NCBI GenBank assembly: GCA_964509565.1
Contig: CAZDXE010000001.1
Span: 3,670 to 67,669, forward strand
From: an uncultured Dehalococcoidales bacterium
GTDB lineage: Bacteria > Chloroflexota > Dehalococcoidia > GIF9 > AB-539-J10
DNA: 64,000 nt
Reading direction: 5' to 3'
The translations under genes and the position numbers were made by a program. Below the pieces are notes generated by a model, which saw only the letters and a list, made by a program, of their open reading frames with translations, did no database searches and was not told the DNA's origin. Below are positions 35,369 to 55,392 of the stretch, piece after piece. Within the stretch, counting starts at the first letter, position 1. Each line of letters opens with the position of its first letter.

Positions 35369-36585
35369 CTATTAAGATGCCTGTTGAAACCAGTAACGGG
35401 GTTAATTGACGACACGGCAACTGTGCCAGGGTGTAACAATACTGTTTCCGCTGGAACCGCTGGAGTCACTAATGTTTCTCGCCAGCATACATCAAGCCCA
35501 TCCACATCAAAACCGTAAATTTCAGTCAAAGCTTCATCATAAGTGCTGCCATATTTAAGTATCGTTAGTAAGTTGAGCATTTTTTGCTGGCCATAATTAT
35601 GCAAGAGATATTCCACCAGGCTATAACTCTCAGCATACGAAAGGCAGGCTTTATCAGTCTCGGCAGAAAATAAACTGCACAAACTACGCACCGAAATCAA
35701 TTCGCCCTCTGAGATAGCACTATTTAGCCGCGTGCGGAAATAAGAACCCAGTTCACCCTGGTTATACATAGCCAATCCTTCATCAAGCCACGTAGGAAGC
35801 CTGCCATAAGGGCTGAAGGTCGTTTGGTGAACAACCAGGTGAGTCAATTCATGAACTAGAGCCTCCTTGCCCCAATCAATGTTATCAGGTGAAATGCCAA
35901 TGGCAATTATACTAAATTCAGTAAAGGCAACACCGCCTGTCCATTCCTGAGGAAAAATCATGGCTTCCTGTAAATCCATGGCTGAGGCATAAACATATAT
36001 CTTGATAGGTTTTTGTGGATAGGTGCCAAGATCTCGAGTTAATCTGTCAAGCCCCTGCTGACAGGCATCCATTAACTCCAAGGCAAAGGAGTCATCTCCT
36101 TTATACCAGAAAAGTGTTAGCTCATTATTTTCACCCTCAAGAGCCTGCGATTCATCAGGGAATTTACTACTGGTCAAACTTTGCCATTGATAACGATCAT
36201 CATCAAAGTGAATTACAGCAGGCAAAGTTTCAATTTCGTTTCCAATAGCATCCCTGATTGTCCACCAGTATGTTACAGTAGCCCCGGAAGGTAAGCTTGA
36301 TTTCCTCATATCCCATGTCCAGCTAGTCTTTATTTTGCTTGCTGGAGTAAAATCAGGCCAACCCTCACTGATAACTCGTGCGTAGTTCATTTTATCCACA
36401 TAATACTTGAGACGAGCATCGACAATATCAGCCTCACTCTCAGCTTCGATGTTGAAGACAAGCGCAACGGGAAAACGCAGCTCCACATCACTATCTAAAA
36501 CCACAATACCGCTATCAGCCTTAACAAAAGAAGATGTGCATATTGAAAAGAGTGCTAAAGCCATCAGGATGATTCGTTTAATCAT
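35365..36585 (-). CDS. Secreted hypothetical protein with peptidase-MA-like HExxH...E zinc-binding motif
   Basis: Signal peptide MIKRIILMALALFSICTSSFVKA. ..ALVHELTHLVVHQ...WLDEGLAMYNQ.. is HExxH plus a downstream Glu, as in gluzincins. Start and stop overlap neighbours by 4 nt on both sides. Confidence 0.6.
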   Translation of the reverse strand: MIKRIILMALALFSICTSSFVKADSGIVVLDSDVELRFPVALVFNIEAESEADIVDARLKYYVDKMNYARVISEGWPDFTPASKIKTSWTWDMRKSSLPSGATVTYWWTIRDAIGNEIETLPAVIHFDDDRYQWQSLTSSKFPDESQALEGENNELTLFWYKGDDSFALELMDACQQGLDRLTRDLGTYPQKPIKIYVYASAMDLQEAMIFPQEWTGGVAFTEFSIIAIGISPDNIDWGKEALVHELTHLVVHQTTFSPYGRLPTWLDEGLAMYNQGELGSYFRTRLNSAISEGELISVRSLCSLFSAETDKACLSYAESYSLVEYLLHNYGQQKMLNLLTILKYGSTYDEALTEIYGFDVDGLDVCWRETLVTPAVPAETVLLHPGTVAVSSINPVTGFNRHLNR

Positions 36586-37686
36586 TTCTCTTCGCCTACT
36601 TTGGAACGGAGATAAGCAGCGATAAACTTATCCAAATCACCATCCAATACAGCTTCAGCATTACCGGTTTCGCAACCAGTGCGATGATCCTTCACCATCT
36701 TATATGGATGAATGACATAGCTTCTAATTTGATTTCCCCACTCAACTTTGACCTGTTCACCCTTGAGCCTGGCTTTTTCCTTTTTCTTATTCTCACGCTC
36801 TAACTCAAGAAGACGCGTATAAAGTATTTTTAAAGCAGCTTCTTTGTTCTGGTGCTGTGATCTCTCACCCTGGCAGGAAGATGTTAACCCTGTAGGCAAG
36901 TGAGTTATCCTAACAGCGCTGCTTGTTTTCTGCATATGTTGCCCTCCAGGGCCGCTGGATCTGAAAGTATCTATTCTTAAATCCTCCTGGTTGATTTGAA
37001 TATCCAATTCCTTGTCTGCTTCGGGAAGAACCTCCACCATGGCAAAAGAGGTATGTCTGGCATGGTCGGCATCAAAAGGGGAAAGACGAACCAATCTATG
37101 GACACCATGCTCACATTTAAGATAGCCATAAGCGTAATCTCCTTTAATTTCTATAATGGCACTTTTGATGCCCGCTTCCTCGCCAGGAGAGACATCCAGA
37201 ATTTCGCTGTGGTAGTTACGTCTCTCTACCCATCGCAAATACATCCTGAACAACATACTGGTCCAATCCTGAGATTCTGTGCCTCCCGCGCCAGCATGAA
37301 AAGCTACTATGGCATTCCTGGTATCATACTCGCCGCTAAGAACTAATTGATTCTCTAATCGTTCGAACTGAGCGGTTATTTGCTGCAGTTCTTGCTGCAC
37401 CTCCTTCTCAAGAGAATGATCGTCTTCCTCAATAGCCAGATCAACCATCTCACAAAGATCAGTGACCTGTTTTTCTATCTCGCACCAGCTAGAAACTAGA
37501 CTCTGTTCCACTCTGAGGTGACGCATAGTAGCTTGAGCTTTGACTGGGTCATGCCAAAAATTAGGGCCAGCTGATTCTGTCTCTATCCTGGCAATCTCCT
37601 TTTCTTTTCCTGAAATGTCAAAGATGCACCATTATATCTGAAATCTGGTGACGTAGCGTTTCCAGCCGTTCTTTTTCTTCCTGCAT
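36582..37686 (-). CDS. prfB: Peptide chain release factor 2, requiring programmed +1 frameshift
   Basis: Frame 0 from the ATG at 37684-37686 (SD AAGGAG) encodes MQEEKERLETLRHQISDIMVHL and then hits TGA within CTT TGA C. A +1 shift continues DISGKEKEIARIE..., which joins the 314-aa track ORF. That ORF carries RF2 motifs (..SGPGGQHMQKTSSAVRITHLPTG.., GGQ) and an SPF-type domain. Confidence 0.9.
37617..37623 (-). other. RF2 autoregulatory +1 frameshift site CTT-TGA-C
   Basis: On the minus strand, CAT CTT TGA CAT: codon 22 is Leu (CTT), followed by in-frame UGA and then C. This is the same heptamer used in E. coli prfB. A weak GGTG SD-like sequence lies 5 nt upstream. Confidence 0.85.
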
Positions 37687-37721: not shown

Positions 37722-38480
37722 CTACTTCGGTTCAGAGGATAATTTGCCGGCGGCGGCAAGGTGAGCCAGACGAGTAGGTTCAGGAAGGCGATACCCACGA
37801 CAGCACTTCATCACCCAATTTAGAGCCATTGTAAGGTTAACTTTATGGCCTACAGAGACATAAATTGGCTTTACTTTGACCTTAGTTCTCAATGCCGCTC
37901 CAACAATTTCTCCACTGTTAATCAATCCAGCAAAAGAGCCAGCTTCCTCCCCTACAAGCTCATGCTTGCCACACAGAATAGATTTAGCACAACCTATAGT
38001 AGGTATGTCAAGGAAAAGCCCTAAATGCGAAGCAAGCCCTAACTTCCTGGGATGTGCAATACCTTGGCCATCAACCAGAACAATGTCAGGAGTATTATAC
38101 AGCATTTCACAAACAGCCAATATTACGGGGCACTCTCGAAAAGATAGTAGTCCTGGTATATAAGGCAAAGTAACCTTGCTTTTGGTCACTTTAACTTCCA
38201 CTATGTTAAGTTCGGGGTACCCAAGTACTACCACTGCCCCTCGGGCCATGCCATGAGAATCTGGAGAAGATATATCCACGCCGGCAACAAGTTGTGGATT
38301 AATATCCTTATCAGTAATCACTACCTTACTTGCCAGCTTTAATTGTATTTCCCTGGCTTTGGCAAGGCTTACATCCCACCTGTGTAGATTGTTTATTTTC
38401 ACACCAACTTGAATTATAAGATAGTTTCCCCTGAAAACAAATACTCCAGCGTTCCGATTTGCCAATACTATTTTACCCAT
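37722..38480 (-). CDS. nfi: Endonuclease V (deoxyinosine 3' endonuclease)
   Basis: ..LVAGVDISS..ARGAVVVLGYP..LPYIPGLLSFRECP..PDIVLVDGQGIAHPRKLGLASHLG..IPTIGCAKS.. aligns to EndoV throughout. The true start may be the internal GTG at about 38402, since E. coli Nfi begins near the equivalent of WDVSLAKA. Confidence 0.82.
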   Translation of the reverse strand: MGKIVLANRNAGVFVFRGNYLIIQVGVKINNLHRWDVSLAKAREIQLKLASKVVITDKDINPQLVAGVDISSPDSHGMARGAVVVLGYPELNIVEVKVTKSKVTLPYIPGLLSFRECPVILAVCEMLYNTPDIVLVDGQGIAHPRKLGLASHLGLFLDIPTIGCAKSILCGKHELVGEEAGSFAGLINSGEIVGAALRTKVKVKPIYVSVGHKVNLTMALNWVMKCCRGYRLPEPTRLAHLAAAGKLSSEPK

Positions 38481-38549
38481 AAAGTATATTTCGCTATACT
38501 ATCCACATAGAGGATAAGAAATTTTTAAAGCAAGGAGGAGAGAAGACAG

Positions 38550-39932
38550 ATGAATTTTGCTGAGCTAAGTTTCAAGGAAGCCCCTAAAATCGTTACACAG
38601 ATACCAGGTCCAAAGACAAAATCCTTGATGGAAAAGGTCATGTCGTTTGACAGCAACTATGTATCATATCCCAGGACACTGCCTATAGCCATAGAAGAAG
38701 GCAAGGGAGCAACAATTAAAGATGTGGATGGCAACATATACATTGACCTTTTTGCAGGCATAGGAGTACTGAATTTTGGCTATTCAAATCCTTACATACT
38801 GAAATATGTCAGACAGCAGGAAGACAAATTAATTCATTGCCTTGATTTCCCTACGCCAACAAGACTTGAGTTTCTTCAAAAGTTAAGCGAGACTGCGCCG
38901 CTAGGCCTGAAAAATAATTGTAAAATTTTCCTTTGCGCCCCAACTGGTTCAGAGGCGGTAACAGCAGCAATCAGATTGGCTAAACTGCAAACAAAACGCA
39001 ACACCATACTATCATTTTGGGGAAGTTATCACGGTGCGAATGGCGAATCTTTCGCTGCAAGTTCGTGGACGGGTGGTTACAAAAGCCAGCACCTCCCAAT
39101 GCTTCCAGACACACATTTTGTCCCCTTCCCTTATTGTTACAGGTGCCCATTCGGGAAAAATTACCCTGGTTGTAATTTAGAGTGTTTCGAATTTCTCAAA
39201 AAGGTGTTGAAAAACGGCTTTTCAGGTGTTTGTAAACCCGCTGCTGTAATTTTAGAATCAGTTCAAGGTGAAGGTGGAATTCATATTCCACCCCGTGAAT
39301 ATGTGCAGGAACTCAGGAGAATTACTGAAGAGGAAGGCATCCTCTTAATATTTGATGAAGTCCAGTGTGGAATGTGTAGAACAGGCAAAATGTGGGCTTG
39401 TGAATACTATGGGGTAACTCCAGATATTATGACTTCAGCAAAATCACTTGGTGGCATAGGGCTTCCCTTAGCGGCAGTTTTCTATAAAAAAGAGCTGGAT
39501 AATTGGCCACCCGGAACCAGCATAGGGACCTTTAGAGGAAATGCGCTGGGAGTAGCTGCCGGGCTAGGAGCTTTAGATTTCATTAGAGAAACAGATTTAT
39601 TGAGCCATGTTGAAACAATCAGCAAGATATTAAACAACGGATTGAACAAACTGAAAGATAAATATGAGGTAATAGGCGAAGTGCGGCAGCAAGGATTAAT
39701 GGCTGCAATTGAATTTGTCAAAGATAGAAAAACCAAGGAGCCATGGAAGGAATTTCTTGATGCTGTGTTGATAGAATGCCTTAGGCGAGGCTTATTCCCA
39801 TGGAAGGCAGGCTACTATTTTAATGTTCTTCGTTTACTGCCTCCACTTGTTATTACTGAAGAATTAATGAATAAATCAATTACAATTCTTGGAGAAGTAA
39901 TTGACGATATAATAAAAAAGGAGGAACTATAG
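38550..39932 (+). CDS. Class-III (omega-amine) PLP-dependent aminotransferase
   Basis: ..[38 protein letters not shown].. with the conserved PLP-lysine region. 460 aa. AAGGAGGAG SD. Confidence 0.88.
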   Translation: [460 protein letters not shown]

Positions 39933-39934
39933 AA

Positions 39935-41284
39935 ATGATCAAAGGAGCAAAAGTAGGAGAGAAAAGACCTGTACCTGGAGAAAAAGGGAAGCAATTACTT
40001 AAATTGAGGAATGAATATGTTCCTCGCGGTGGGTTCCACACAGCACCCATTTTTATTGCCAAGGGCAAAGGTGCCATAACTGAAGATGTTGATGGGAATG
40101 AGTATATCGACTTCTGTGGTGGCATTGCTTGTCTCAATACAGGACATTGCCATGAGAAAGTCGTCGCAGCAGTAAAGGACCAAGTAGATAAATTCATGCA
40201 CGTCTCCTTCAATGTGTTCATGTACGAATCATTTGTTCAACTAGCGAAGGAAATTTGTGAAAGCACACCGGGCAATTTCCCCAAAAAAGCATACTTTTTC
40301 AATAATGGAGCTGAGGCTGTTGAAAACGCAGTTAAAATAGCCAGAAGATATACTGGTAGATACAACATACTTGCATTCGAACACGCATTTCATGGAAGAA
40401 CTCTACTCACCATGGGGTTGACCAGCAAGGTAAAGTACTACAAGTATGGTTTCGGTATAACCGACATAGGAATTATGCGAGTTCCTTATGCTTATTGCTA
40501 CAGGTGCCCACATAAATTAAGCTATCCTACATGTGGAATGCATTGCCTCAACAGAATCGAGGATATGTTCAAAACCTATTCTCCAGCTGACAGCATTGCG
40601 GCAATACTCGTAGAACCAGTTTTAGGCGAGGGAGGATATGTTATTCCACCAAAAGAATTTATCAAAGGGCTAAGAGATCTGTGTAACAAATATGACATCC
40701 TCTTCATAGCCGATGAAATACAAGCTGGCATGGGGCGCACAGGGAAAATGTGGTCAATAGAACATTTCGATGTTGTCCCTGACCTGATGACAATAGGTAA
40801 AAGTCTATCAGGTGGAATGGTCTTAACAGGCACCGTAGGACGGGCAGACGTAATGGATTCAGTTGAAACAGGAGGAATAGGTGGAACATTCTCAGGTCAT
40901 CCGCCTGCGTGTGTGGCTGCGCTAGAAGTGCTGAAAGTGTTTAAGGAAGAGAAGCTCGTGGACAGATCCGCCATGCTGGGTAAACTTACCAAAGGTAGAT
41001 TGGAGGAAATGAAGAATAAATATAGCATAATAGGCAACGTTAATGGTATCGGAAGCATGCTGGGGCTTGAATTAGTCAAAGATCGAAAAACAAAACAACC
41101 TGCAGCAGCCGAAACTAAAGAGATAATGAAAAACTGTCACGAGCACGGCTTAATGATTATGAACTGTGGTACGCTTGGTAATGTTCTTCGTTTCATTTAC
41201 CCATTGGTAATCAAAGAGGAAGAATTGATGAAGGGATTAGATATATTAGAAAATGCCATAAAGGAGACAAGTAAATCCATATAA
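39935..41284 (+). CDS. Class-III PLP-dependent aminotransferase (paralog of upstream gene)
   Basis: ..FIADEIQAGMGRTGKMWSIEHFDVVPDLMTIGKSLSGG.. 449 aa. Starts 2 nt after the upstream paralog's stop. Confidence 0.88.
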   Translation: MIKGAKVGEKRPVPGEKGKQLLKLRNEYVPRGGFHTAPIFIAKGKGAITEDVDGNEYIDFCGGIACLNTGHCHEKVVAAVKDQVDKFMHVSFNVFMYESFVQLAKEICESTPGNFPKKAYFFNNGAEAVENAVKIARRYTGRYNILAFEHAFHGRTLLTMGLTSKVKYYKYGFGITDIGIMRVPYAYCYRCPHKLSYPTCGMHCLNRIEDMFKTYSPADSIAAILVEPVLGEGGYVIPPKEFIKGLRDLCNKYDILFIADEIQAGMGRTGKMWSIEHFDVVPDLMTIGKSLSGGMVLTGTVGRADVMDSVETGGIGGTFSGHPPACVAALEVLKVFKEEKLVDRSAMLGKLTKGRLEEMKNKYSIIGNVNGIGSMLGLELVKDRKTKQPAAAETKEIMKNCHEHGLMIMNCGTLGNVLRFIYPLVIKEEELMKGLDILENAIKETSKSI

Positions 41285-41311
41285 AATAAACCGGGGATTT
41301 AAGGATCAAAT

Positions 41312-41389
41312 TAGCTAAAGGCAATCACGGACTTGAGCTCAGTAAAGAAAACAGGGAGCCATAATTATTTCGAGGATTGCCTTTAGCTA
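41312..41389 (+). promoter_or_regulatory. Structured 5' leader or intergenic element bounded by a 15-bp perfect inverted repeat (TAGCTAAAGGCAATC ... GATTGCCTTTAGCTA), upstream of the AOR gene
   Basis: Arms at 41312-41326 and 41375-41389 enclose a 48-nt interior containing the palindrome TGAGCTCA. It lies 30 nt before the AOR SD (AGGAGG) and is too long-looped to be a simple intrinsic terminator. Confidence 0.35.
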
Positions 41390-41420
41390 TGAAGTTGATT
41401 TCAATAAAAGAGGAGGTAAG

Positions 41421-43151
41421 ATGGACGGATTCTACAACAAAATTTTGCGCATTAATGTTAGCAAGAAATCATTTGAACAGGAACCGGTCAGCGATGAAAT
41501 CTACCAAACATTATTAGGAGGCAAAGGCCTTGCCACACATCTGCTGGTGAACAACACAAAAGCAGGAGTTGACCCTTTATCAGAAGGCAACGTGCTCATT
41601 TTCGCTACAGGGCCTGTTACAGACACGGCAGTTTGGGGCTCTTCCAGATATGGGGTATTCACCAAAGCTCCTTTAACGGGATTATATGCTGAATCTTATT
41701 CCGGGGGTAAAGTTGCTGAGCCGCTGAGTAGAACTGGCTATGACGCGATAATGATCGAAGGAGCTTCTAAAAACCCTGTTTATCTTGAGATTTCTGACGG
41801 AGATGTAAAATTTCATAATGCATCTCATATCTGGGGAAAGGACACCTACGAAACAGAGGATATTATAAAACAAGAAGTTGGCATAAAAAATGCAGGAGTT
41901 GTCGTTATAGGGCCCGCTGGTGAAAATTTGGTGCGATTCGCCTGCATCGAAAATGATTACTGGAGGTCGGCTGGCAGAACAGGAGTTGGAGCAGTAATGG
42001 GCTCTAAGAAAATTAAGGGCATCGCCTTCCATGGTAACAAGAAGAGGAAAGTGGCAAACCCCGACTTACTTAAGAAGCTGAGTACGGAACTAAAAGATAT
42101 AGGCAAAGATAATCCTGGAGCAAAGAACTACAGAAGTTTTGGGACATTACAAATGGTACCTATCATGAACAAAGTTGGGGCATTCCCCACAAAATACTGG
42201 CATGCAGGAACTTATGATAAATGGCAAAACTTAACTCAGGATGCCTTACAGAAGAAAGCTAAAGTACGATCACACGCATGCCCAAGATGTTTTATGGGCT
42301 GTGGAAGGTTGACTGAGGTGCTTGAAGGCAGGCACAAGGGACTAAAACAGGAATTAGATTATGAAACTGTAGGTGCTTTTGGTGGAGTATGCCTGATAGA
42401 TGATATCGTGGAAGTTGTGTATCTAAACGATATATGTGACAGATTGGGCATGGATACCATAACTGCAGGCAACCTGGCAGGTTTTACCATAGAAGCTTCT
42501 CACTTAAAAGATATCGGAGAGAAAATTGAATATGGAGATGTTGACGCTATTGCTGCTTTGTTAAATAAAATGGCAATGAAAGAAGGTATCGGGGCTATTC
42601 TGGCCGAAGGCATAAAACATGCCAGCAAAGAATGGGGCCTCGAGGATTTGGCTATTCATGTCAAAGGAATGGAACCTGCATGCTATGATCCAAGGGTTTT
42701 GTATGGAATGGGTTTAGCATTTGCCACTTCGGACAGAGGCGCATGTCATTTAAGAGCAACTTTCTATAAAGCAGAGCTTTCAGGGGCGATATCCCCAACT
42801 GCAGTCGAGGGTAAAGCAGAGATGCTTATCGATTTCGAAGATAGGCACAATCTTTTCGACGCCCTGATTTTGTGCAGATTTTTCAGAGACCTGTACCCGT
42901 GGGAAAAAATTTCAACAGTCATAAACGCAACTACGGGAATGGAGCTAGATAAGAAGCAACTGCAGAAAGTGGCTTCAGCTATTGCAAATAAGGTTAGGGA
43001 GTTTAACCTGCGCGAGGGAATGAATAAAGAGATAGACGAAACACTGCCAAAGAGATTTTTCGAGGAAAAACTTGAGGATAGTGGCAAGGTATTACCCAAA
43101 GCTAGTTTTGACAGGATGTTATCTGATTATTATAAACTCAAAGGGTGGTAA
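41421..43151 (+). CDS. Aldehyde:ferredoxin oxidoreductase (tungsten/molybdopterin AOR family)
   Basis: MDGFYNKILRINVSKKSFEQEPVSDEIYQTLLGGKGLATHLL.. N-terminal AFOR_N domain and C-terminal AFOR_C with the Cys ligands of the [4Fe-4S] cluster (..CPRCFMGCG..). 576 aa. Confidence 0.9.
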   Translation: MDGFYNKILRINVSKKSFEQEPVSDEIYQTLLGGKGLATHLLVNNTKAGVDPLSEGNVLIFATGPVTDTAVWGSSRYGVFTKAPLTGLYAESYSGGKVAEPLSRTGYDAIMIEGASKNPVYLEISDGDVKFHNASHIWGKDTYETEDIIKQEVGIKNAGVVVIGPAGENLVRFACIENDYWRSAGRTGVGAVMGSKKIKGIAFHGNKKRKVANPDLLKKLSTELKDIGKDNPGAKNYRSFGTLQMVPIMNKVGAFPTKYWHAGTYDKWQNLTQDALQKKAKVRSHACPRCFMGCGRLTEVLEGRHKGLKQELDYETVGAFGGVCLIDDIVEVVYLNDICDRLGMDTITAGNLAGFTIEASHLKDIGEKIEYGDVDAIAALLNKMAMKEGIGAILAEGIKHASKEWGLEDLAIHVKGMEPACYDPRVLYGMGLAFATSDRGACHLRATFYKAELSGAISPTAVEGKAEMLIDFEDRHNLFDALILCRFFRDLYPWEKISTVINATTGMELDKKQLQKVASAIANKVREFNLREGMNKEIDETLPKRFFEEKLEDSGKVLPKASFDRMLSDYYKLKGW

Positions 43152-43356
43152 GTATACCTTCCCCAAGATACTCATAACTCGGAATACTGTGGCCGGAGAA
43201 TATGAATCTCCGACCACATGTTAGATCATGCAACTATAAATTTTTACCAATTCCTGGTAAGGAGCATGCCATTCAGGTCAATTGCGGTAAACCTATATTT
43301 CAAATTTAGGTCTCTTTCTACTACTAGATTTGCTACCATTTTCTCTTTCCACTGAA

Positions 43357-44454
43357 CTAAAGGTGAATTGACCCGTGGGCAGGTGATCCATGGCTATCGA
43401 AGAATCCAGCTAACTCATCCCGTTTAAATTGAGGTAAATCGCATACTCCTGCTATAGTGTGTATCTTCAGTCCTTTTTTCGCTTCCACTATTTTCCCTAT
43501 GACGTTGGCATTAATCCCAATTTTATGTAGCCCTTCCAACAATCTGGAAGTCTCGGAAGAAGGCAGTGTAATAATCAAGGCTCCCGATGCTAATAAACCA
43601 AGAGGGTCAATTTCAAATTTGCCACAGATAGCCTTGCACTCAGCCAAAACAGGTATATTTTCCCCTTCCACCAAAATGCCAACCTGTGCTGCAGTAGCTA
43701 TTTCCAAAAGCCCTGTAGCTAATCCACCCTCGGTAGGGTCATGCATTGAGTGCACAGTCACCATTGAGCACGCAGTTAGTGCCTCCTTGACCACGCTAAT
43801 CCCTGGGGAAAAGAGGTAATTTGCCGCACGCTGGACCAAATTTTTATTTAACCCTGCGGAGAGAAGAGCTTTCTCTGCTTCCTGTGCCAGTACAGCCGTC
43901 CCCTCGATGGCAATTCCCTTTGTAAGCACAACATCGTCGCCCAACATGGCTCCAGATGTAGTTATTATAGACCCTTCCTCAGCTTCCCCCAGCATACACC
44001 CAACCACCACAGGGCGATTGAAATCATAAGTTATCTCAGTATGTCCCCCTACAAGAGTAACCCCCAGAGAATTACAAGCAGAAAGTACCTGGTCGAAAAT
44101 CTTTTCCGCTTCCTGATGGGTTGATTGTTCAGGAAGGAGAATGGTCGCCAGAAACCAGCGTGGCTTCACTCCCATAGTAGCGATGTCATTGGCATTAACA
44201 TGAACCACATACCAACCAATAAAATCAGTAGCAAATGTCACCGGGTCCGTTTTAGCCACCAATAATTTGTGACCGCATTTTATCACCGCCGCGTCTTCGC
44301 CAATACGAGGACCGAGAATGACCTGCTCATCCTCTATCTTAATTTTATCCAGAAAATTTCTAAGTAAGTCTGATGGGAGTTTACCGACATTCAAAGAATC
44401 CATTTTAAAATTTTGATTATAGTTGCATATCTCGAAGGTGGGGTAACAACCCAC
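43357..44454 (-). CDS. AIR-synthase-related (PurM-like superfamily) protein of unknown function
   Basis: PurM-like N and C domains (..GEDAAVIKCGHKLLVAKTDPV.., ..HDPTEGGLATGLLEIA..). Lacks the HypE C-terminal PRIC Cys motif, so it is not assigned to HypE, ThiL or SelD. 3 nt downstream of iorB. Confidence 0.72.
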   Translation of the reverse strand: MGCYPTFEICNYNQNFKMDSLNVGKLPSDLLRNFLDKIKIEDEQVILGPRIGEDAAVIKCGHKLLVAKTDPVTFATDFIGWYVVHVNANDIATMGVKPRWFLATILLPEQSTHQEAEKIFDQVLSACNSLGVTLVGGHTEITYDFNRPVVVGCMLGEAEEGSIITTSGAMLGDDVVLTKGIAIEGTAVLAQEAEKALLSAGLNKNLVQRAANYLFSPGISVVKEALTACSMVTVHSMHDPTEGGLATGLLEIATAAQVGILVEGENIPVLAECKAICGKFEIDPLGLLASGALIITLPSSETSRLLEGLHKIGINANVIGKIVEAKKGLKIHTIAGVCDLPQFKRDELAGFFDSHGSPAHGSIHL

Positions 44455-44457
44455 CTC

Positions 44458-45102
44458 TTATTTTGCCCGATACTTATCTATGCCCTCTTCATTTAACTCG
44501 ACATCGCCAATGCCCATTTCAAGAGCCTTTAAGTTCAATTTCATCTTTCCGTGCGGAAAGATATTCCACATTTCATTCTCAACATCCGCCCTTTCCAGAA
44601 CAAGTTGGCCTGAACCAATGAGAGCTCCTACCATAATAATATTCACAACTATGGGAGCGCCCAGTTTCGATGCTATACTTGTAGCATCTACAAGCCAGAC
44701 TAACTTAGAAAGCTTTACAATTGCTTCCTTAAGTTCATCACAACCAGGGTATTCCTCTTTTTCTGAAAGTGCTCCTATTGTCAAGATAGGATGTGTATTG
44801 GTTACACACACTACTCCTGGGTTTCCATATCGCTGTAGCATCCTTAAAGTCTCCAGAGGTTCAAGTCCGAGAATAAGATGAGCTTTACCTTGTGGAATTA
44901 GCGGCCCATAATGCCCTTTAGTAAATATCCTGAGGGTACTAAAAACGGCGCCGCCCCTCTGGCTAGCCCCAAATGTTTCTCCTATAGTGACATGATAGCC
45001 CTTCTTCATCAACGCATTACCTATTAAGCCTGAGATTAAGATGTTCCCTTGACCCCCAACTCCACAAATAATCAGGTTTAATGGGTCACAAGAAATAGCC
45101 AT
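44458..45102 (-). CDS. iorB: Indolepyruvate (aromatic 2-oxoacid):ferredoxin oxidoreductase beta subunit
   Basis: ..LIICGVGGQGNILISGLIGNALMKKGY.. is a typical IorB N-terminus. 214 aa. 1-nt overlap with iorA. Confidence 0.88.
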   Translation of the reverse strand: MAISCDPLNLIICGVGGQGNILISGLIGNALMKKGYHVTIGETFGASQRGGAVFSTLRIFTKGHYGPLIPQGKAHLILGLEPLETLRMLQRYGNPGVVCVTNTHPILTIGALSEKEEYPGCDELKEAIVKLSKLVWLVDATSIASKLGAPIVVNIIMVGALIGSGQLVLERADVENEMWNIFPHGKMKLNLKALEMGIGDVELNEEGIDKYRAK

Positions 45103-47018
45103 TATTTTATATTCTCCTTAACGATAGCTTTATATGGGCATATATCAACACAGACTCCACACCCAGTACAAACTTCCTCCAGCACTTGTGCCTTATCAAC
45201 CTCCTTATCATGGAATAAAGCAGGACACTGAAACTCCCTGTAGCAAAACCCGCACTTTCCCCCCCCACATTTTTCTGGATCAACCCAAACTCTATACGGG
45301 CGGGCCCGCTCCTCTTTCATTCGAACCAATTCACACTTTCTACGTAAAATCAGGACCTTAGGCCCATTCTCATCTTTCAGCAACTCACAGAGAGTGATTG
45401 TGGTCCCCTTTATATCAAAAGGGTCTCTCACTTGTACTTTGCACCCTATAGCACGACAAAGGCTCTCAATAGACACTACGGGGGCTGGGTCCTGAGTGGC
45501 AGTTCTACCTGTCCCTGGGTGAGGTTGGAAACCAGTCATTCCCGTAGCACCATTATCTAGCACTAACAGCGTCATGCTCGACTTGTTATAAACAGCGTTA
45601 ATTAACGCTGGGATTGATGCGTGAAAAAATGTTGAGTCGCCGCATATCCCAATAGACGGCTGTTCCGACCCTAAAGAGGCAAGCTGGCCAAAACCACAGG
45701 CCGACCCTGCTCCTGAGCCCATGCAATGCACTATATTGCTCTGGTGAGGGCCATAGGGAAATACGTCCAGTGTGTAACAACCAATATCACCAACCACCAC
45801 CACCTTTCTACCATCACGTTTTATGGCCTTCTTTAAAGAGAGAAAGCTAGCCCGATGAGGGCACCCAGGGCACCAGAGCATGCCGCGGTCAATGACCAGC
45901 GGCTTAGCTGTATCCTGAACCATCTGCTCATAACTAGTTTCTCTCGCCCGATATTGCAATTTCAAGATTTCAGCCAGGGCGCATATTATTCCATCCGGTG
46001 TTATCTCACCGACAGGGTTTATATGGCCAGAATCTTTACCATATATTTCCAGGGGCAGTACCGTATCTAAATACAATGTTGCTGTTTCTCTCACGTGAGC
46101 TTCGACAAAAGGATCCACTTCCTCTGCCACGAGTACCCTGGTTGTCAATTTTAAGTATTTAGCAACAAATTTCTTGGGGAACGGCCACAGAGTCACCAGT
46201 TTCAGAATTCCCACTGATTCACTCAAGCCCAGTGTTTCTACAGCCTCAAGAGAGCATGGCCAGCCACTACCACTACAGATTATCAGCAGCTCTGGTTGCT
46301 CTGGTCCTGTATATGAATTGAAAGGGCTGGACTCAAACATCTCTTGAACCTTGAGCATCTTCTCATGCAAAATGGCATGTTTCGGTGTAGTCGGGAAGGG
46401 AATATAGTGTTTAGTGGTATCGAATACAGCTTTCTTCTCTGGCCGGGATATTTTCCCGAGCTTGACATCACCATGTGAATGGGACAGTCGTGTATAGCTC
46501 CTCAAGAAACACCAGCATTTCAACTCCTCAGATAAATCAAATGCCCACCTGGTCAAATCCTTGGCCTCCTGCACATCTGTTGGCTCTAAAAGGGGGGCAC
46601 TGGCTATTTTAGTTATCCAGCGTGTATCAGCTTCATCATCACTGGAATGAGCTTGCGGATCATCACATACAACTACCAGCAATGCTCCTCCCCCATCACC
46701 TATACCTGTCAGGTTAAGGTGCGTCAAGAAATCCATTGCTACACTTGCACCAGCATTCTTCATGGCAGCAAGTCCTCTCAATCCAGAAAAAGCTGCTGAC
46801 GCTGCTACTTCTGTAGCTACCTTCTCATTGACAGACCATTCCACATGAATACCAATATTTTTAGCAACTGTGGCAAGTGTTCCAATAATTTCTGAGGAAG
46901 GCGTCCCTGGATAAGCAGCGCAGAAGTGCACTCCTGCCTCAAGTGCACCCCTGGCTATTGCTTCATTGCCAAGCAGCAGCGCAGAAGTGTCTGCTTCTTG
47001 CCCCATGATGTCTCGCAT
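45102..47018 (-). CDS. iorA: Indolepyruvate:ferredoxin oxidoreductase alpha subunit (TPP, 2x[4Fe-4S])
   Basis: ..LLLGNEAIARGALEAGVHFCAAYPGTPSSEI.. N-terminus, TPP domain, and C-terminal CxxCxxCxxxCP ferredoxin motifs (CTGCGVCVDICPYKAI). 638 aa. Confidence 0.9.
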   Translation of the reverse strand: MRDIMGQEADTSALLLGNEAIARGALEAGVHFCAAYPGTPSSEIIGTLATVAKNIGIHVEWSVNEKVATEVAASAAFSGLRGLAAMKNAGASVAMDFLTHLNLTGIGDGGGALLVVVCDDPQAHSSDDEADTRWITKIASAPLLEPTDVQEAKDLTRWAFDLSEELKCWCFLRSYTRLSHSHGDVKLGKISRPEKKAVFDTTKHYIPFPTTPKHAILHEKMLKVQEMFESSPFNSYTGPEQPELLIICSGSGWPCSLEAVETLGLSESVGILKLVTLWPFPKKFVAKYLKLTTRVLVAEEVDPFVEAHVRETATLYLDTVLPLEIYGKDSGHINPVGEITPDGIICALAEILKLQYRARETSYEQMVQDTAKPLVIDRGMLWCPGCPHRASFLSLKKAIKRDGRKVVVVGDIGCYTLDVFPYGPHQSNIVHCMGSGAGSACGFGQLASLGSEQPSIGICGDSTFFHASIPALINAVYNKSSMTLLVLDNGATGMTGFQPHPGTGRTATQDPAPVVSIESLCRAIGCKVQVRDPFDIKGTTITLCELLKDENGPKVLILRRKCELVRMKEERARPYRVWVDPEKCGGGKCGFCYREFQCPALFHDKEVDKAQVLEEVCTGCGVCVDICPYKAIVKENIK

Positions 47019-47115
47019 TTTATCTCCTTGTTTAACCAGCTATGTTATTCACTTGATGTTATGTCATATTTCCTTAATATTCTATCATTAATGGCAGATT
47101 AAATACCCTCACCAC

Positions 47116-47894
47116 TCATTTCCCTAACACCACCCCCGTTGGGTCTATTTCCTGTCGTAATATTATTAAATTCTCTTCACTGGGCATATAGCTTATTTCA
47201 ACTTTATCTGGTATGACAATTTCGAAACCGCTATTCTGCCTTACCTCATCTATACTCACCCCCGGATGCAGGGAAATCAATTTCAGTCTTTTCGTTTCCT
47301 CATCAAAACCATAGACAGCTAGTTGGGTAATAACTCGGTAGGGCCTGATCCTCTAGCCAACCCTGCCCTTTCCCTACCTCCTGGGCCATCCAGGTAGCCA
47401 GCAGTGGTCAGAAAATCAACCTTATTGACAAAACTCCTTTTACATTGATTAGCAATAATGTAAATAGTTTTGTTTGAGAAAGAACCCACATTATTAGCAC
47501 CACCACTGCCAGGTAGGCGAACTTTGGGCCTGTCATGATCGCCTATGACGGTGGTATTAAGATTGCCATACATATCCATCTGTGCGCCTACCAGAAATCC
47601 ATAATCTGCATATCCTGCCTGTGAAAGCGACATAACATCATGCATACTGGAAGCGCTTATAGCCCTGTAGATAGTTCTAGAATCACCTACAGAGATAGGC
47701 AACTCATTCATCAGAGGCCCCAGCCCACCAGCCTCAAATATTATGAATAAATCAGGCGCATGCGTTTTTTGAGCCAGCATAGAAGCTATCATAGGAAGTC
47801 CTGTGCCCACAAAGACAGATTTCTTGTTCTCCAACATTTTGGAGCCATTGCACGCCAATAATTCTCGTAAATTATACCTGGTTTTTGTTGCCAT
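47116..47894 (-). pseudogene. Glutaconate-CoA-transferase subunit B-like (CoA-transferase beta) gene interrupted by a frameshift
   Basis: The track ORF (47319-47894, 191 aa) ends ..LPGSGGANN..GLARGSGPTELLPN* and lacks the family's C-terminal roughly 70 aa. A hand translation in a different reading frame downstream to the TGA at 47116 gives the expected C-terminus RVITQLAVYGFDEETKRLKLISLHPGVSIDEVRQNSGFEIVIPD..LRQEIDPTGVVLGK. The junction is within ggccctaccgagttattacc (about 47345-47325). Confidence 0.7.
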
Positions 47895-47932
47895 ACCTTT
47901 AACTCCCCCTATTTGACACTAATTCTAAGATT

Positions 47933-48943
47933 TCATTTGTATGATATGGCCTTCATCGGCTCCTCATAAGACTCTCTTCTCTTTAAATAATCCAACTTTT
48001 TTGCACCACCACAGGCTTCCAGATAATCCTCAAAATTGGCAATGCTGTAGACATATTTTTGCAGATACTCATCTGCACCCTCCTCAGTTCTGGACAATTT
48101 CAACCATTCAGCTATATGCTCTTCATCAAACCAATACAAACCGGGCATCTCGGAAGGGTGTGCGCTATACGGAATCTCAACTACAGCATCTACTACCAAA
48201 AAAGGTATACTTGTTTTCCAGGGCTCTCTCCTGATAACTTCATTATCAACAATCTCCTCAGTAGTTATTATTAATCTTCGAGCACATCTGGAAAGTTCAA
48301 AATCCTCCACCAGGTGACCATCTATTTGGGCATTGCCATAGATATCACATCGGTGAACATGAATAAACGCCGCATCAGGGTAGGCTGCTGGAATCAAATT
48401 GATTGGTTTGCCGCTAAAGGGATCCTGGATTACCTTACAGGAGCTGTATTTGCCGGTGTCAGTGCCAAGTAAGTTGCGGCTAGGTATAAATGGCAGGCCC
48501 ATCATCCCAGCTAACCATCGCAATTGGTACCCAGCATTGCTGGTTTCAGCAATGACTTTACATCTCCCGCTTTCCACCATCCTTCTTGAAGCCGGAGATA
48601 AACCTCTAAGCTCATGGCCAAAACTGTAAGCCACCTCTGCCCTATTTACACAGCCAGAAGCCACCAGAATGTCAATATCGTGGACCGCTGTTTTACCAGC
48701 CATAATCAGATTGCGCTTCCTCTGTCTGATTATCTCATAGACAACAGCCATGGACACTCTTATATGTCCAAACCCTCCACTGGCTATAAAATCTCCATCA
48801 TGAACGAATTTGGCAACGGCCTCTTTAACTGACATGGTCTTATCCTTTAATTCACGTGACTTATTATTTAGCACCCATTCCCTGGCCTCGTCCGGATCAT
48901 GCCACCCTATAAGTTCACCTTTGCCCTCCTGTAATATTTGCAT
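47933..48943 (-). CDS. Glutaconate-CoA-transferase subunit A-like (family I CoA-transferase alpha)
   Basis: ..KFVHDGDFIASGGFGHIRVSMAVVYEIIRQ.. CoA-transferase alpha N-domain. 336 aa. The start may be the internal Met (MSVKEAV..). Confidence 0.8.
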   Translation of the reverse strand: MQILQEGKGELIGWHDPDEAREWVLNNKSRELKDKTMSVKEAVAKFVHDGDFIASGGFGHIRVSMAVVYEIIRQRKRNLIMAGKTAVHDIDILVASGCVNRAEVAYSFGHELRGLSPASRRMVESGRCKVIAETSNAGYQLRWLAGMMGLPFIPSRNLLGTDTGKYSSCKVIQDPFSGKPINLIPAAYPDAAFIHVHRCDIYGNAQIDGHLVEDFELSRCARRLIITTEEIVDNEVIRREPWKTSIPFLVVDAVVEIPYSAHPSEMPGLYWFDEEHIAEWLKLSRTEEGADEYLQKYVYSIANFEDYLEACGGAKKLDYLKRRESYEEPMKAISYK

Positions 48944-48970
48944 TTTATTTATCTACTTTGCAACGCTTGT

Positions 48971-49900
48971 TTAGTAACCTACTTTATCCAGTCCTTTAAG
49001 CCCCAGAAGCTGTCTTGTTTCATCAGGGGTAGCTATATCAATGTCCAGCTCCCTGGCAATGCGGGTGATTTTCCCCACCTGCTCAGCGCTACTTTTAGCC
49101 AGTATTCCTTTGCCGACATACAGGCTATCTTCCAGGCCAACTCTGACATTGCCTTTCATAACTAACGCAGCAGTGCATATGGGGAGCTGAAAATGGCCAG
49201 CAGCACACACTGACCAGACAAAATCATCACCAAAAGCATGTGTGGCTGTTTCATGCAAAAATACCAGATTATCGACAGAGGGAGGTATTCCTCCCATAAT
49301 TCCCATGACAAACTGAAGATAAAGGGGTTTTTTGAGGAATCCTTTCTTTACCAGGTAAAGCAAATTGTTAATCATGCCGACATCGTAGATTTCCAATTCA
49401 GGTTTGGTATTGCTCTCTTCAAAAGTCCGAGCGAATTCCTGTAGAGACTTAAATGTATTGGGGAAGATGAAATCTTCAGTCATCCTCAAATATTGCTTTT
49501 CCCACGAATATTTCCACTCCTTTATCTGCATTCGTTCGGGAAGGTCGAAAAGGCCAAAGTTTATGGAGCCAGCATTGAATGAAGCTAATTCTGGTTTAAA
49601 GGTGGGAACCACTTTTAACCTCTCCTTTATAGGCATACCCAAGCCTCCACCAGTGGTTGTGCATACAACGAGATTACATTTGCTTTTTATCCTGGCTAAT
49701 ATTTCGCGGAAGAGGTTCATGTCTGAACTGGGCTGACCTGTTTTTGGGTTACGTATATGTATGTGAACTACACTGGCTCCGGCATCATAAGCTTCAATTG
49801 CTTGTTCAGCAATTTGCTCTGGCGTGATAGGCAGGTAAGGGCTCATGCTGGGAGTATGTATACCACCAGTGATCGCTGCGGTTATTATTACTTTAGCCAT
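48971..49900 (-). CDS. BKACE-family beta-keto acid cleavage enzyme (3-keto-5-aminohexanoate cleavage enzyme-like, DUF849)
   Basis: MAKVIITAAITGGIHTPSMSPYLPITPEQIAEQAIEAYDAGASVVHIHIRNPKTG.. matches the Kce/BKACE TIM-barrel N-terminus. Confidence 0.85.
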   Translation of the reverse strand: MAKVIITAAITGGIHTPSMSPYLPITPEQIAEQAIEAYDAGASVVHIHIRNPKTGQPSSDMNLFREILARIKSKCNLVVCTTTGGGLGMPIKERLKVVPTFKPELASFNAGSINFGLFDLPERMQIKEWKYSWEKQYLRMTEDFIFPNTFKSLQEFARTFEESNTKPELEIYDVGMINNLLYLVKKGFLKKPLYLQFVMGIMGGIPPSVDNLVFLHETATHAFGDDFVWSVCAAGHFQLPICTAALVMKGNVRVGLEDSLYVGKGILAKSSAEQVGKITRIARELDIDIATPDETRQLLGLKGLDKVGY

Positions 49901-49921
49901 AGTAAATCCTCCTCCGCTTTT

Positions 49922-50890
49922 CTAAACTATTCCATTACTGTCAGGGCGACTTCGTATTTCTTCAATGAAATCAAGCACTACTTTGTCAAAATCTGAGTAC
50001 ATAGCTTGCCAACCCCATTCCTCCCTCGCTTTGCTATCGTCGAAGATATCTACAGTAGAAGTACGAAAGTAATTCATTACATCAGGGTCAGGTTTGTAAC
50101 TTATGTGAGACTCCGGAATGTATTTCTTCACTACCTGTTCGATTTCTTTAGCTGTTCGAGTTGGTACCACACCAGCAACATTGTAGTTCACGGTTTTGAT
50201 TTCCTCGACAGGAGCATGATACATCATGTCTACAGACCTGGCTGCATCCTTAAAATACAGGACAGGACACTTTGTGTCTTCGCTGACGTAGCACTTAAAA
50301 GGTTTGCCCAAAGCTGGATACTCAATCATCCAGGCATTCCATTGTGCCACGCCGGGGGTTCTAACGCCTGGGCCAATCACTGAGGGAAAGCGCACTGACC
50401 TGAAATCCAGACCAAATTTGGAACGGTAGAACCTGCCCAAACACTCGCAATATAGTTTGCCACAACCATACATTGTTGTAGGTCGCTGAAGCGTCGTATC
50501 TGTAATTACAGGGGAGCAATCCAATCCGTATGTGGACAAAGTACTGGTGAAAATTACCTTGCTCGCTTTCAAAAGGCGAGCAGCCTCCAATACATTTACC
50601 ATCCCAACGACATTCACTTGAAAGGAAGCCCATGGATTCGCATTGGAAGGCACACTCAGCATTCCGCCCAGGTGGTAGATGCCTTCAATATTGTAATCCC
50701 TGACAACATTGAACACTTCAGGCCAATTAGCCAGGTTCCCCTGCGCTATTTTGACTTTATCATGAATATCACTAATACGAGCATAATTCGGGGCGACGTC
50801 AAACAGAACAACGTCCTCACCTTTATTGACAAGTATATGTGCTAATTCAGTACCAACAAAACCAGTTCCTCCAGTAATAAGAACTGCCAT
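49922..50890 (-). CDS. NAD-dependent epimerase/dehydratase-family (extended SDR) dehydrogenase, possibly an L-threonine 3-dehydrogenase-like beta-hydroxy acid dehydrogenase
   Basis: MAVLITGGTGFVGTELAHILV.. and a Y..K catalytic pair. GGGAGGTG SD. 21 nt upstream of the BKACE gene on the same strand. Confidence 0.78.
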   Translation of the reverse strand: MAVLITGGTGFVGTELAHILVNKGEDVVLFDVAPNYARISDIHDKVKIAQGNLANWPEVFNVVRDYNIEGIYHLGGMLSVPSNANPWASFQVNVVGMVNVLEAARLLKASKVIFTSTLSTYGLDCSPVITDTTLQRPTTMYGCGKLYCECLGRFYRSKFGLDFRSVRFPSVIGPGVRTPGVAQWNAWMIEYPALGKPFKCYVSEDTKCPVLYFKDAARSVDMMYHAPVEEIKTVNYNVAGVVPTRTAKEIEQVVKKYIPESHISYKPDPDVMNYFRTSTVDIFDDSKAREEWGWQAMYSDFDKVVLDFIEEIRSRPDSNGIV

Positions 50891-51082
50891 CTATATACAC
50901 CTCCCTCTAATTCATTAAGATATTTTTATCTCTTAATAGTTGGAGTATCAACAGCATGGCTCATGTCCAGAGGACTCCACCTTACAATACCCTCAGAATA
51001 GTGATCTCCGCCTCGTGGCAGCCATTTTTGAGATACAGAGTCTTATTTTCCACACTTGTTAGCATAGATAGAAACTAATATT

Positions 51083-51934
51083 TTACTTCTTGACTAATTC
51101 GGCCAGCTTCTCAGCTTCTCCTTGAATCATTTTATAGCAATGTATATCTTCCGGGAATTTGCTTTCTCTAATATCGCTTATGTAATCTTGAAAAGCGTTC
51201 ACCATGTCTTCAGCTATATGAGCGTATCGCTTGACAAATTTAGGTTTGAAAGCCTGCCAGATACCCAGCATATCATGTGCAATAAGTAGCTGCCCATCAC
51301 AATAGATACCGGCACCAATACCATATACCGGTATTTCAAGGTCTTCGGTTATAAATTTGCCCACTTCAGGAGCTACTGCCTCTAAAAGTAAAAGTTGCGC
51401 ACCTGCTTCCTGAAGTGCTCTAGCATCCTTAATTACCTCATTTGCAGTTTCCGCTGTGCGCCCCTGAGCTTTATAGCCGCCAAATTGCCCCGTGCTTTGT
51501 GGGGTTAAGCCAATATGGCCACAAACAACCATCCCTGCATCAACAACTGCTTTTACTACTTTTGTGACCCGACGCCCTCCCTCCAGCTTGATAGCATCAA
51601 CTCCAGCTTCCTTATAGAACCTGCCTGCATTCCTGACAGCTTCTTCTGGCGTTGTCTGATAAGATAAAAAAGGCATATCGCCCATTACAAAAGTGTTGGG
51701 GGCTCCTCTGCGAACAGCTTCCGCATGCACAATGCATTGGTCCATAGTAACGGGGATAGTTCCTGCTGTATATCCATAAATGAGCATGCCTACCGAGTCT
51801 CCCACCAGAATCATATCTATGCCCGCCTGTTCCTGAAACTGCGCCATTGGGTAATCGTAGCAAGTTAGCCACGTAACTTTTTCGCCTTCTTTCTTCATCT
51901 TTTGAAAATCTATCAGGCCCTTCTTCTTCTGCAT
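51083..51934 (-). CDS. panB: 3-methyl-2-oxobutanoate hydroxymethyltransferase (ketopantoate hydroxymethyltransferase)
   Basis: Aligns along its length with PanB: ..TCYDYPMAQF..ILVGDSVGM..VRRGAPNTFVMGDMPF..AIKLEGG..VCGHIGLTPQS..GGYKAQGRT.. Confidence 0.88.
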   Translation of the reverse strand: MQKKKGLIDFQKMKKEGEKVTWLTCYDYPMAQFQEQAGIDMILVGDSVGMLIYGYTAGTIPVTMDQCIVHAEAVRRGAPNTFVMGDMPFLSYQTTPEEAVRNAGRFYKEAGVDAIKLEGGRRVTKVVKAVVDAGMVVCGHIGLTPQSTGQFGGYKAQGRTAETANEVIKDARALQEAGAQLLLLEAVAPEVGKFITEDLEIPVYGIGAGIYCDGQLLIAHDMLGIWQAFKPKFVKRYAHIAEDMVNAFQDYISDIRESKFPEDIHCYKMIQGEAEKLAELVKK

Positions 51935-51967
51935 TTAATCATCTCCTTTCTTTTTAAATAGCATGAA

Positions 51968-54091: not shown

Positions 54092-54096
54092 GATTT

Positions 54097-55329: not shown

Positions 55330-55392
55330 GCGATTCTCCTTTCATGATTACTGCTCTTCTTTGCAGTTATCGCTGTCAATGTTGACCATGCG

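Follow-up and report, generated by a model that had tools for sequence, protein, structure and literature searches.

In aerobes, oxidation of the aldehydes that arise from omega-amino compounds falls to semialdehyde dehydrogenases that depend on NAD(P), for example GabD, and we know of no genetic link in Pyrococcus between an aldehyde:ferredoxin oxidoreductase (AOR) and an omega-transaminase. The transaminase PH1423 of Pyrococcus horikoshii is listed as an ornithine delta-aminotransferase; with 2-oxoglutarate as amino acceptor, it uses the L and D forms of ornithine and lysine and has weaker activity towards 5-aminovalerate, 6-aminohexanoate and 4-aminobutyrate (GABA) (PMC9986279 table 3). For Dehalococcoidia and co-occurring metagenome-assembled genomes (MAGs), degradation of amino acids through aminotransferases together with aor and iorAB has already been inferred (PMC8359207). 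Here we describe a 64-kb stretch of DNA (the window) from an uncultured Dehalococcoidia bacterium, with genes called from an open reading frame (ORF) listing and from Pfam and NCBIfam scans, and focus on an array of two class-III transaminase genes (AT1 and AT2) and an AOR gene at 38.5-43.2 kb. With moderate confidence, and on the basis of sequence comparison, we propose that this array is an operon that would convert omega-amines to aldehydes and these to acids with reduction of ferredoxin, in a host that would be a fermentative, non-dehalogenating member of the Dehalococcoidia.

AT1 (38550-39932; Aminotran_3, E 2e-95) and AT2 (39935-41284; Aminotran_3, E 8e-124) lie on the plus strand and, as the original prediction had stated, are separated by only 2 nt (TAG-AA-ATG), with the ribosome-binding site of AT2 inside the 3' end of AT1. 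AT2 covers the full-length class-III fold of pyridoxal phosphate (PLP) enzymes (PF00202, 413.9 bits, profile positions 8-403 of 403) and its best matches in the PDB are PuuE and GabT of Escherichia coli (6wj8, E 1e-112; 1sf2, E 1e-110). Residue alignment to 1sf2 demonstrated that I50, R141, E211, D239, Q242, K268, T297 and R398 of GabT are all conserved in AT2, including the arginine that contacts the omega-carboxylate (R141) and the residues that form the gate for the alpha-carboxylate (R398 and E211). Judged by these residues and matches, AT2 is a GabT/PuuE-like omega-amino-acid:2-oxoglutarate transaminase.

The best solved relative of AT1 is PH1423 itself, an ornithine/lysine omega-aminotransferase (7vno; 289 bits, residues 14-452). 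Alignment to 7vno and BLASTP comparison with AT2 showed that AT1 retains the PLP lysine, the D/Q/E/T residues and the equivalent of R398, the arginine that binds the 2-oxoacid, within the motifs SAKSLGG, FDEVQCG, QGEGG, GTFRGN and NVLRLLPPL. AT1 belongs to a narrow clade in which identity runs from 66 to 91% and then drops to ~50%, where the few source-labelled hits are archaeal MAGs. The original description of AT1 and AT2 as paralogues stands, but they did not arise by recent duplication: at 35% identity they are old, distant paralogues. Neither falls in the biosynthetic ArgD, BioA or HemL clades according to NCBIfam scores and structure ranks. The cutoff of the argD model TIGR00707 is 410, and AT1 and AT2 reached scores of 268 and 320; models for BioA and HemL were absent from the 25 best NCBIfam matches listed for either protein, and BioA and HemL structures ranked far below GabT-type structures for both.

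Both transaminases carry a four-cysteine segment, CYRC-x8-C-x3-C, at residues ~195-211 of AT1 (window ~39130-39185) and ~187-203 of AT2 (~40490-40545). This segment is common to 114 of 120 AT1 homologues and to several AOR-linked transaminases at other loci, and none of the four best-matching solved structures displayed for this region has cysteines there. The motif may be a metal or Fe-S site.

The AOR gene (41421-43151, plus strand; AFOR_N 255 bits, AFOR_C 369 bits) encodes a protein closest to the AOR of Pyrococcus furiosus (E 7e-110). It retains the four cysteine ligands of the [4Fe-4S] cluster, the equivalents of E313 and H448 (P. furiosus numbering) and both DxxGL(C/D)x pterin-binding aspartate motifs, with GL replaced by GM and IL. 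These features place it in the AOR clade of the tungstopterin family with intact cofactor ligands, and its metal would be tungsten or possibly molybdenum.

AOR had been placed directly downstream of AT2 with a structured leader of its own, and the 136-nt spacer between the two genes does fold as a hairpin (41313-41388, plus strand), with arms at 41313-41326 and 41375-41388 that extend to ~15 bp. The fold of the spacer, with its 15-bp core, has an energy of -36.1 kcal/mol (z = -4.0), and none of 200 shuffled sequences folded as well. The stem is kept in five relatives whose loci are 78-91% identical, while the loop diverges, and the only substitutions in the stem, A-U to G-U and U-A to U-G, are compatible with an RNA structure. 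No counterpart was found at more distant AOR loci. A riboswitch, including one for molybdenum or tungsten cofactor, was rejected because no Rfam match was obtained at the gathering threshold or at E values up to 10; a dispersed repeat was rejected because the arms are unique within the window. The spacer contains no canonical terminator. Downstream of AOR, between it and a convergent PurM-like gene, an imperfect palindrome read from the sequence at 43189-43217 (GTGGCCGGAGA...TCTCCGACCAC) is possibly a bidirectional terminator; it was not among the results of the terminator scan. Promoter and terminator scans over 37.4-48 kb gave counts at chance level, and operon boundaries were therefore not drawn from these scans alone.

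Of the readings of the locus, the one originally predicted, in which amines become aldehydes that AOR oxidizes to acids, is best supported, and the best available evidence for it is that AOR is repeatedly paired with transaminases of different lineages across organisms. A search of metagenomes with AOR as query returned 38 loci at 45-95% identity, 23 of which had enough upstream sequence to judge. A class-III transaminase gene lay upstream of the AOR orthologue on the same strand in 9/23 of these informative loci, a count made without phylogenetic correction. Two loci have AT2 followed by AOR (L092, L093), one has AT1, an AT2-like gene (65%) and AOR (L094), one has AT1 and AOR (L099), and two have AOR behind a transaminase that is 47-48% identical to AT2 (L095, L108). 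The remaining three arrangements are longer. In L112, genes for a Liv-type ABC transporter, an AT2-like protein (64%), AOR, an FrhB-like protein, IorA and IorB follow one another co-directionally; in L113, a saccharopine-dehydrogenase-like gene precedes a different Aminotran_3 gene and AOR; and in L119, DctP/Q/M genes of a TRAP transporter lie between an AT2-like gene and AOR. The linked transaminases comprise AT2-type, AT1-type, 47-48%-identical and 29%-identical proteins, and the uptake genes of L112 and L119 point to a catabolic role. After near-duplicates were collapsed, there were ~7 distinct arrangements with a transaminase and ~7 without, with L107 too short to tell.

Indels among close relatives also favour this reading. 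The host belongs to the Dehalococcoidia, as had been suggested, with MAG AUK195 (locus L009) as the closest genome at ~90% nucleotide identity, and the same contig is present in several metagenome assemblies. Comparison by blastn showed that window positions 38503-39860, comprising most of AT1, are absent from L009, L092 and L093. The last 24 codons of AT1 remain in frame in these three relatives (SKELMSKLIMILREVIGDIVKKEEL), which indicates that AT1 has been deleted from them and rules out its recent insertion here. A promoter-like site on the plus strand upstream of AT1 (TTTACC-17-TATACT, 38472-38500), which was found by a consensus scan and is not above chance on its own, lies in a region conserved in L092 and L093 to window position 38502, directly before the deletion, such that in the relatives without AT1 it stands upstream of AT2. 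In L099 it is exactly AT2 that is missing. Every deletion variant (L009, L092, L093 and L099) keeps at least one transaminase before AOR, and either transaminase is dispensable in relatives, as expected of accessory catabolic genes.

In the mechanism that we propose, the PLP-dependent omega-transaminases would shift the terminal amino group of imported amino compounds to 2-oxoglutarate, giving glutamate and an aldehyde or semialdehyde, and AOR would oxidize this aldehyde irreversibly to a carboxylic acid with the transfer of two electrons to ferredoxin. The substrates of AT2 would most likely be of the GABA type (4-aminobutyrate or 5-aminovalerate), giving succinate or glutarate semialdehyde, whereas AT1 would most likely take a substrate of the ornithine, lysine or diamine type, either a basic amino acid or an amine that lacks a distal carboxylate. 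IorAB may feed the same ferredoxin pool from arylpyruvates. The sequences show the families of the genes, their conserved residues and layout, the recurrent pairing and the history of indels; co-transcription of the three genes, flux towards the acid, tungsten in AOR and the substrates just named are inferred. A more elaborate version, which we consider distinctly unlikely, would have the three genes suffice to turn a diamine or basic amino acid into a dicarboxylate in four steps, for example putrescine through 4-aminobutanal, GABA and succinate semialdehyde into succinate, or lysine or cadaverine into the glutarate equivalent. AT1, without the carboxylate-binding arginine, would take the first amine and AT2 the omega-amino acid formed by AOR, so that one broad-specificity tungsten AOR would replace PatD and GabD, both NAD(P)-dependent, and yield four reduced ferredoxins per substrate; strains with only AT2 and AOR or only AT1 and AOR would run shortened versions.

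Several observations count against the simpler hand-off from transaminase to AOR. AT2 falls 12 bits short of the GabT equivalog (TIGR00700, 494.3 against a cutoff of 506.65) and is for this reason termed GabT-like rather than GabT; it also scores 530.9 against a cutoff of 676 for PRK06918. AT1 passes no curated NCBIfam cutoff and has YHGAN in place of the (Y/F)HGRT of GabT and PH1423, such that the Arg141 with which GabT binds the distal carboxylate is missing. The hairpin between AT2 and AOR could split the transcripts. The window contains no obvious onward route for succinate or glutarate, and no genes for a tungstate transporter, pterin cofactor, ferredoxin or glutamate dehydrogenase were found within its 64 kb. 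Finally, about half of the distinct contexts of AOR orthologues lack a transaminase: L110, L115 and L118 have a sugar-acid-type operon of genes for an iron-containing alcohol dehydrogenase, a 2-hydroxyacid dehydrogenase, a glyceraldehyde-3-phosphate dehydrogenase-like protein, phosphoglycerate kinase, AOR and a short-chain dehydrogenase/reductase (SDR), and YbeY lies upstream of AOR in L097, L098 and L105. These many contexts indicate that the AOR clade is a general aldehyde oxidizer and not a dedicated partner of transaminases. Taken with the recurrent pairing, gene context points to a broad-specificity enzyme that has repeatedly been recruited to follow enzymes that form aldehydes. These are omega-transaminases in most cases, and uptake systems are at times present as well. 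The substitution in AT1 is a feature of its relatives, as no arginine followed (Y/F/W)HG in any of the motifs tallied among the 120 closest homologues (seven sequences had no motif match) and the commonest residues at this position were QT, AY and MT. AT1 is probably an omega-transaminase whose substrate has no distal carboxylate.

Other explanations of the locus were also weighed. P. furiosus AOR favours aldehydes derived from amino acids, and the enzyme described here may, as proposed for Pyrococcus, mainly scavenge aldehyde side products of 2-oxoacid:ferredoxin oxidoreductases such as the pyruvate-type (POR) and arylpyruvate (IOR) enzymes, with the transaminases supplying 2-oxoacids or glutamate and the hand-off being indirect. 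Such a role is consistent with the presence of IorAB and a POR-type enzyme in the same window, with the co-directional cluster of AT2-like, AOR and IorAB genes in L112 and with the many AOR orthologues in non-transaminase contexts. However, GabT-type class-III enzymes act on omega-amino groups and give aldehydes directly, while the transaminases that form aromatic 2-oxoacids are of class I, and the adjacency to iorAB is lost in L092 and L122 and absent at most AOR loci, so that on balance we regard scavenging as unlikely. Alternatively, the adjacency could be incidental, with AT1 and/or AT2 in a biosynthetic or housekeeping role (acetylornithine, LysW-lysine, or ornithine transaminase for proline) unrelated to AOR. 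Among NCBIfam models, AT1 scores highest with PRK05769 (404 bits; 'acetyl ornithine aminotransferase family'), argD models match AT1 and AT2 alike, and the PH1423 homologue of Thermococcus kodakarensis, TK2101, is listed as an ornithine omega-aminotransferase (PMC9986279 table 3), which the title of a paper cited in that table ties to growth without exogenous proline. We think this improbable: the argD-type scores given above are far under the cutoff, the GabT-specific residues are kept in AT2, either transaminase gene can be deleted in close relatives, and the pairing recurs, at times with transporters.

The identity of AT1 and the direction of flux could each also be read differently. Rather than a transaminase, AT1 may be one of the PLP-dependent racemases and epimerases found in the GabT-like subgroup (compare PH0138, PH0782, TK1211 and isoleucine 2-epimerase) and act on D-amino acids of peptidoglycan or necromass, because an alanine/serine racemase (9wqz, 248 bits), a broad-specificity racemase (9wrf) and isoleucine 2-epimerase are among its top solved relatives and the NCBIfam model LeuMetRace scores 298 bits. 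This possibility has little to recommend it, since AT1 matches the ornithine/lysine transaminase 7vno with a higher score, LeuMetRace requires 800 bits and the AT1-type gene of L099 lies directly upstream of AOR without AT2, which is a better fit to an aldehyde-forming enzyme. As the AORs of acetogens use reduced ferredoxin for the reduction of carboxylic acids and transamination can proceed in either direction, the module might instead run backwards, from acid to aldehyde and, by amination, to amines or omega-amino acids. We find this highly improbable: related operons contain uptake systems, no downstream biosynthetic genes are present, and the nearby peptide-uptake and peptidase genes indicate catabolism. 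We therefore retain oxidation of transaminase-derived aldehydes by AOR as our favoured interpretation.

On the minus strand lie, in order of rising coordinates, a PurM-like gene (43357-44403 from an ATG start; AIRS and AIRS_C domains) and genes for IorB-like (44458-45102; POR gamma-type domain, PF01558) and IorA-like (45102-47018; Pfam TPP_enzyme_C, POR_N and Fer4) proteins. The coordinates and families of these genes and of AT1, AT2 and AOR were as originally predicted in the ORF listing and the Pfam and NCBIfam scans. Their assignment to a single 8.5-kb block was not supported, as the AT1-AT2-AOR array, the PurM-like gene and iorAB are three separate units, and it is the PurM-like gene, not iorAB, that is convergent to AOR. 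The range of 38550-47018 claimed for the block moreover cuts through a minus-strand operon, in which iorAB is preceded by genes at 47117-50890. In order of transcription, this unit encodes an SDR/epimerase-type dehydrogenase (49922-50890; Pfam), a beta-keto-acid cleavage enzyme (BKACE; 48971-49900; NF053538, 433.1 against a cutoff of 430), the alpha (47933-48943; Pfam) and beta (47117-47894; Pfam) subunits of a CoA-transferase, IorA and IorB.

The IorA stop codon overlaps the IorB start by 1 nt, and IorA has a domain that binds thiamine pyrophosphate (TPP) and two 4Fe-4S motifs. Both subunits score below their equivalog cutoffs (IorA, TIGR03336, 581.2 against 650.9; IorB, TIGR03334, 153 against 205.8), and specificity for arylpyruvates is thus only a prediction. 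The CoA-transferase beta gene is frameshifted at ~47345: its ORF stops at 47319 after 191 aa and the conserved C-terminal 67 aa run on in another frame to 47117. The cause is a 1-nt deletion (GGCCC[T]TA) relative to AUK195, which has the gene intact; five independent assemblies (L001-L005) share this deletion, and the repaired protein spans the whole CoA_trans profile. The alignment of L092 jumps from window position 44480 to 53911, retaining the last 23 nt of iorB and leaving 44481-53910 without a counterpart, and L122 is also without iorB beside the PurM-like gene. The absence of iorAB beside the PurM-like gene in at least these two close relatives, with the frameshift, makes the unit look accessory and partly decaying. 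We conclude that iorAB belongs to a separate, strain-variable unit with no mechanistic tie to the transaminases. A loose relation between AOR and IorAB, through a common ferredoxin pool or aldehyde side products, is plausible because L112 holds both in one operon.

The BKACE just passes the equivalog for 3,5-dioxohexanoate:acetyl-CoA acetone transferase, the enzyme that serves as triacetate lyase when phloroglucinol is degraded anaerobically (PMC10470551). A complete phloroglucinol pathway around this gene was rejected, as neither a cyclase-family hydrolase nor a 3-hydroxyacyl-CoA-dehydrogenase-type enzyme nor a phloroglucinol reductase was recognized nearby; a 317-aa protein was considered as the missing ring-opening hydrolase and rejected, with only a generic TIM-barrel fold found. 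In L092, nothing aligns with the stretch that extends from iorB to the gene for this 317-aa protein or with a saccharopine-dehydrogenase-like gene (44481-53910; also 54076-55811 and 56414-57938), and of the second SBP_bac_5 gene an internal fragment is all that is left, a pattern that suggests stepwise deletion of accessory catabolic genes in one species-level lineage. The region 52922-54096 comprises 1.17 kb of an otherwise tightly packed genome with no ORF longer than 73 aa except one of 126 aa, which starts at 53915 and continues antisense to the saccharopine-dehydrogenase-like gene; no Rfam match to the region was convincing, and positions 53911-54075 are conserved in L092. The saccharopine-dehydrogenase-family protein itself (54097-55329, minus strand) weakly matches carboxynorspermidine synthase, at 69 bits where the cutoff is 800, and a 28%-identical relative lies directly upstream of the class-III transaminase and AOR genes of L113 (3130-4299). 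By gene context, this hints that lysine or polyamine metabolism may feed AOR.

The PurM-like gene had been described as tightly coupled to iorB, an artefact of the longest ORF, which begins with a GTG at 44454 (43357-44454). Gene callers and 21 aligned homologues (consensus MxxLPVGKLP) support an ATG start at 44403 and a protein of 348 aa. The resulting gap of 54 nt from the iorB stop contains a G+C-rich hairpin and a TATAAT box, which argue against coupling to iorAB. The family has 440 relatives at 51-91% identity, nearly all from Dehalococcoidia or Chloroflexota. Examination of 80 genome loci, including some short contigs unable to show iorAB, found iorAB beside the PurM-like gene in 1/80 (AUK195) and no iorAB match in 79/80, and on this synteny an Ior accessory function was rejected. 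Neighbour clustering identified a convergent PALP enzyme as the commonest neighbour (39 loci), followed by unrelated housekeeping genes.

All Pfam and NCBIfam scores of the PurM-like protein are below cutoff, including those for the thiL (113 against 184), hypE (110 against 252), selD (78 against 125) and purM (39 against 236) equivalogs. Its best PDB matches are HypE and then ThiL, and an AlphaFold model was poor (pLDDT 57, pTM 0.54). It shares AIRS and AIRS_C domains with HypE, ThiL, SelD and PurM and has a HypE-like DPTEGG motif, but differs in that its genomic surroundings have no relation to genes for hydrogenases, thiamine or purines. The consensus C-terminus (FERDELARFLDS) contains no cysteine, such that the HypE signature is lacking, and the N-terminal LPVGKLP lacks the Cys/Sec-Lys motif of SelD. 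As far as its domains and motifs tell, this is an ATP-dependent enzyme of the PurM superfamily, HypE/ThiL-like and independent of both the transaminase-AOR locus and the Ior unit.

Elsewhere in the window, the original prediction had noted a pyruvate:ferredoxin oxidoreductase, two Opp-like binding proteins and two peptidases. Two SBP_bac_5 proteins and peptidases of the M24 and MA types were found. A 2-oxoacid:ferredoxin oxidoreductase is present too, but it is a multi-subunit and not a single-chain enzyme: its gamma-delta, alpha and beta genes are followed by co-directional genes for NuoE-like and NuoF-like proteins and a small 2Fe-2S/4Fe-4S protein, and the set (18528-23878, minus strand) may encode a complex that couples 2-oxoacid oxidation to NAD(H). 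A protein of the tubulin/FtsZ family with a CetZ_C domain, an archaeal-type family, is encoded in this bacterial genome at 25948-27123 (plus strand) and adjoins a TIG/Ig-domain protein. The prfB ORF (36582-37526, minus strand) starts at position 50 of the RF2 model, as expected of the usual programmed +1 frameshift gene with a first exon outside the listed ORF.

The framing of this metabolism as notable for Dehalococcoidia is weak, as the same metabolism was inferred earlier (PMC8359207). The general picture, in which amino acids are fermented through aminotransferases, AOR and IOR, is unchanged. The literature was searched for links between AOR and succinic semialdehyde or GabT and yielded nothing relevant, which is absence of evidence only; the pairing of a GabT-type enzyme with AOR may be undescribed so far and would be a modest extension, all components being from known families. 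If the proposed mechanism is correct, anaerobic Dehalococcoidia oxidize amine-derived aldehydes by a ferredoxin-linked tungsten enzyme and not by NAD(P)-dependent dehydrogenases, and would so capture low-potential electrons from GABA-type compounds, polyamines or basic amino acids of necromass. This would refine metabolic models for a very abundant lineage of sediments and anoxic waters and provide a concrete candidate substrate class for one clade of bacterial AORs.

Comparison with described systems indicates which features are shared and which are particular to this locus. The two-subunit IorAB resembles the Thermococcales/Methanobacterium type in its alpha subunit with TPP and 2x[4Fe-4S], its POR gamma-type beta subunit and its overlapping stop and start codons, but lies behind BKACE and CoA-transferase genes instead of beside an arylacetate-CoA ligase, in a unit that is strain-variable and has subunits under the equivalog cutoffs. 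AT1 belongs to the same GabT-like subgroup as PH1423 and TK2101, with the PLP lysine, D/Q/E/T and R398 kept, and differs from PH1423 in having YHGAN in place of FHGRT and a four-cysteine motif that PH1423 lacks. AT2 can be aligned over its whole length with GabT and PuuE, the transaminases of the gabT-gabD and puuE-yneI systems of E. coli, and, as in gabT-gabD, a transaminase gene adjoins the gene for an enzyme that would oxidize its aldehyde product; AT2 differs from E. coli GabT in its four-cysteine insert (CYRCx8Cx3C), and the partner enzyme is a ferredoxin-linked AOR of the tungstopterin family in place of an NAD(P)-dependent aldehyde dehydrogenase. That AOR has the same two-domain architecture as the AOR (1aor) and FOR (1b25) of P. 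furiosus, shares their Fe-S cysteines, E313, H448 and pterin aspartate motifs, and like them is set in peptide and amino-acid fermentation. It differs from 1aor in being bacterial and 576 aa long as opposed to 605 aa, and from the P. furiosus enzyme in its location in an operon with omega-transaminases.

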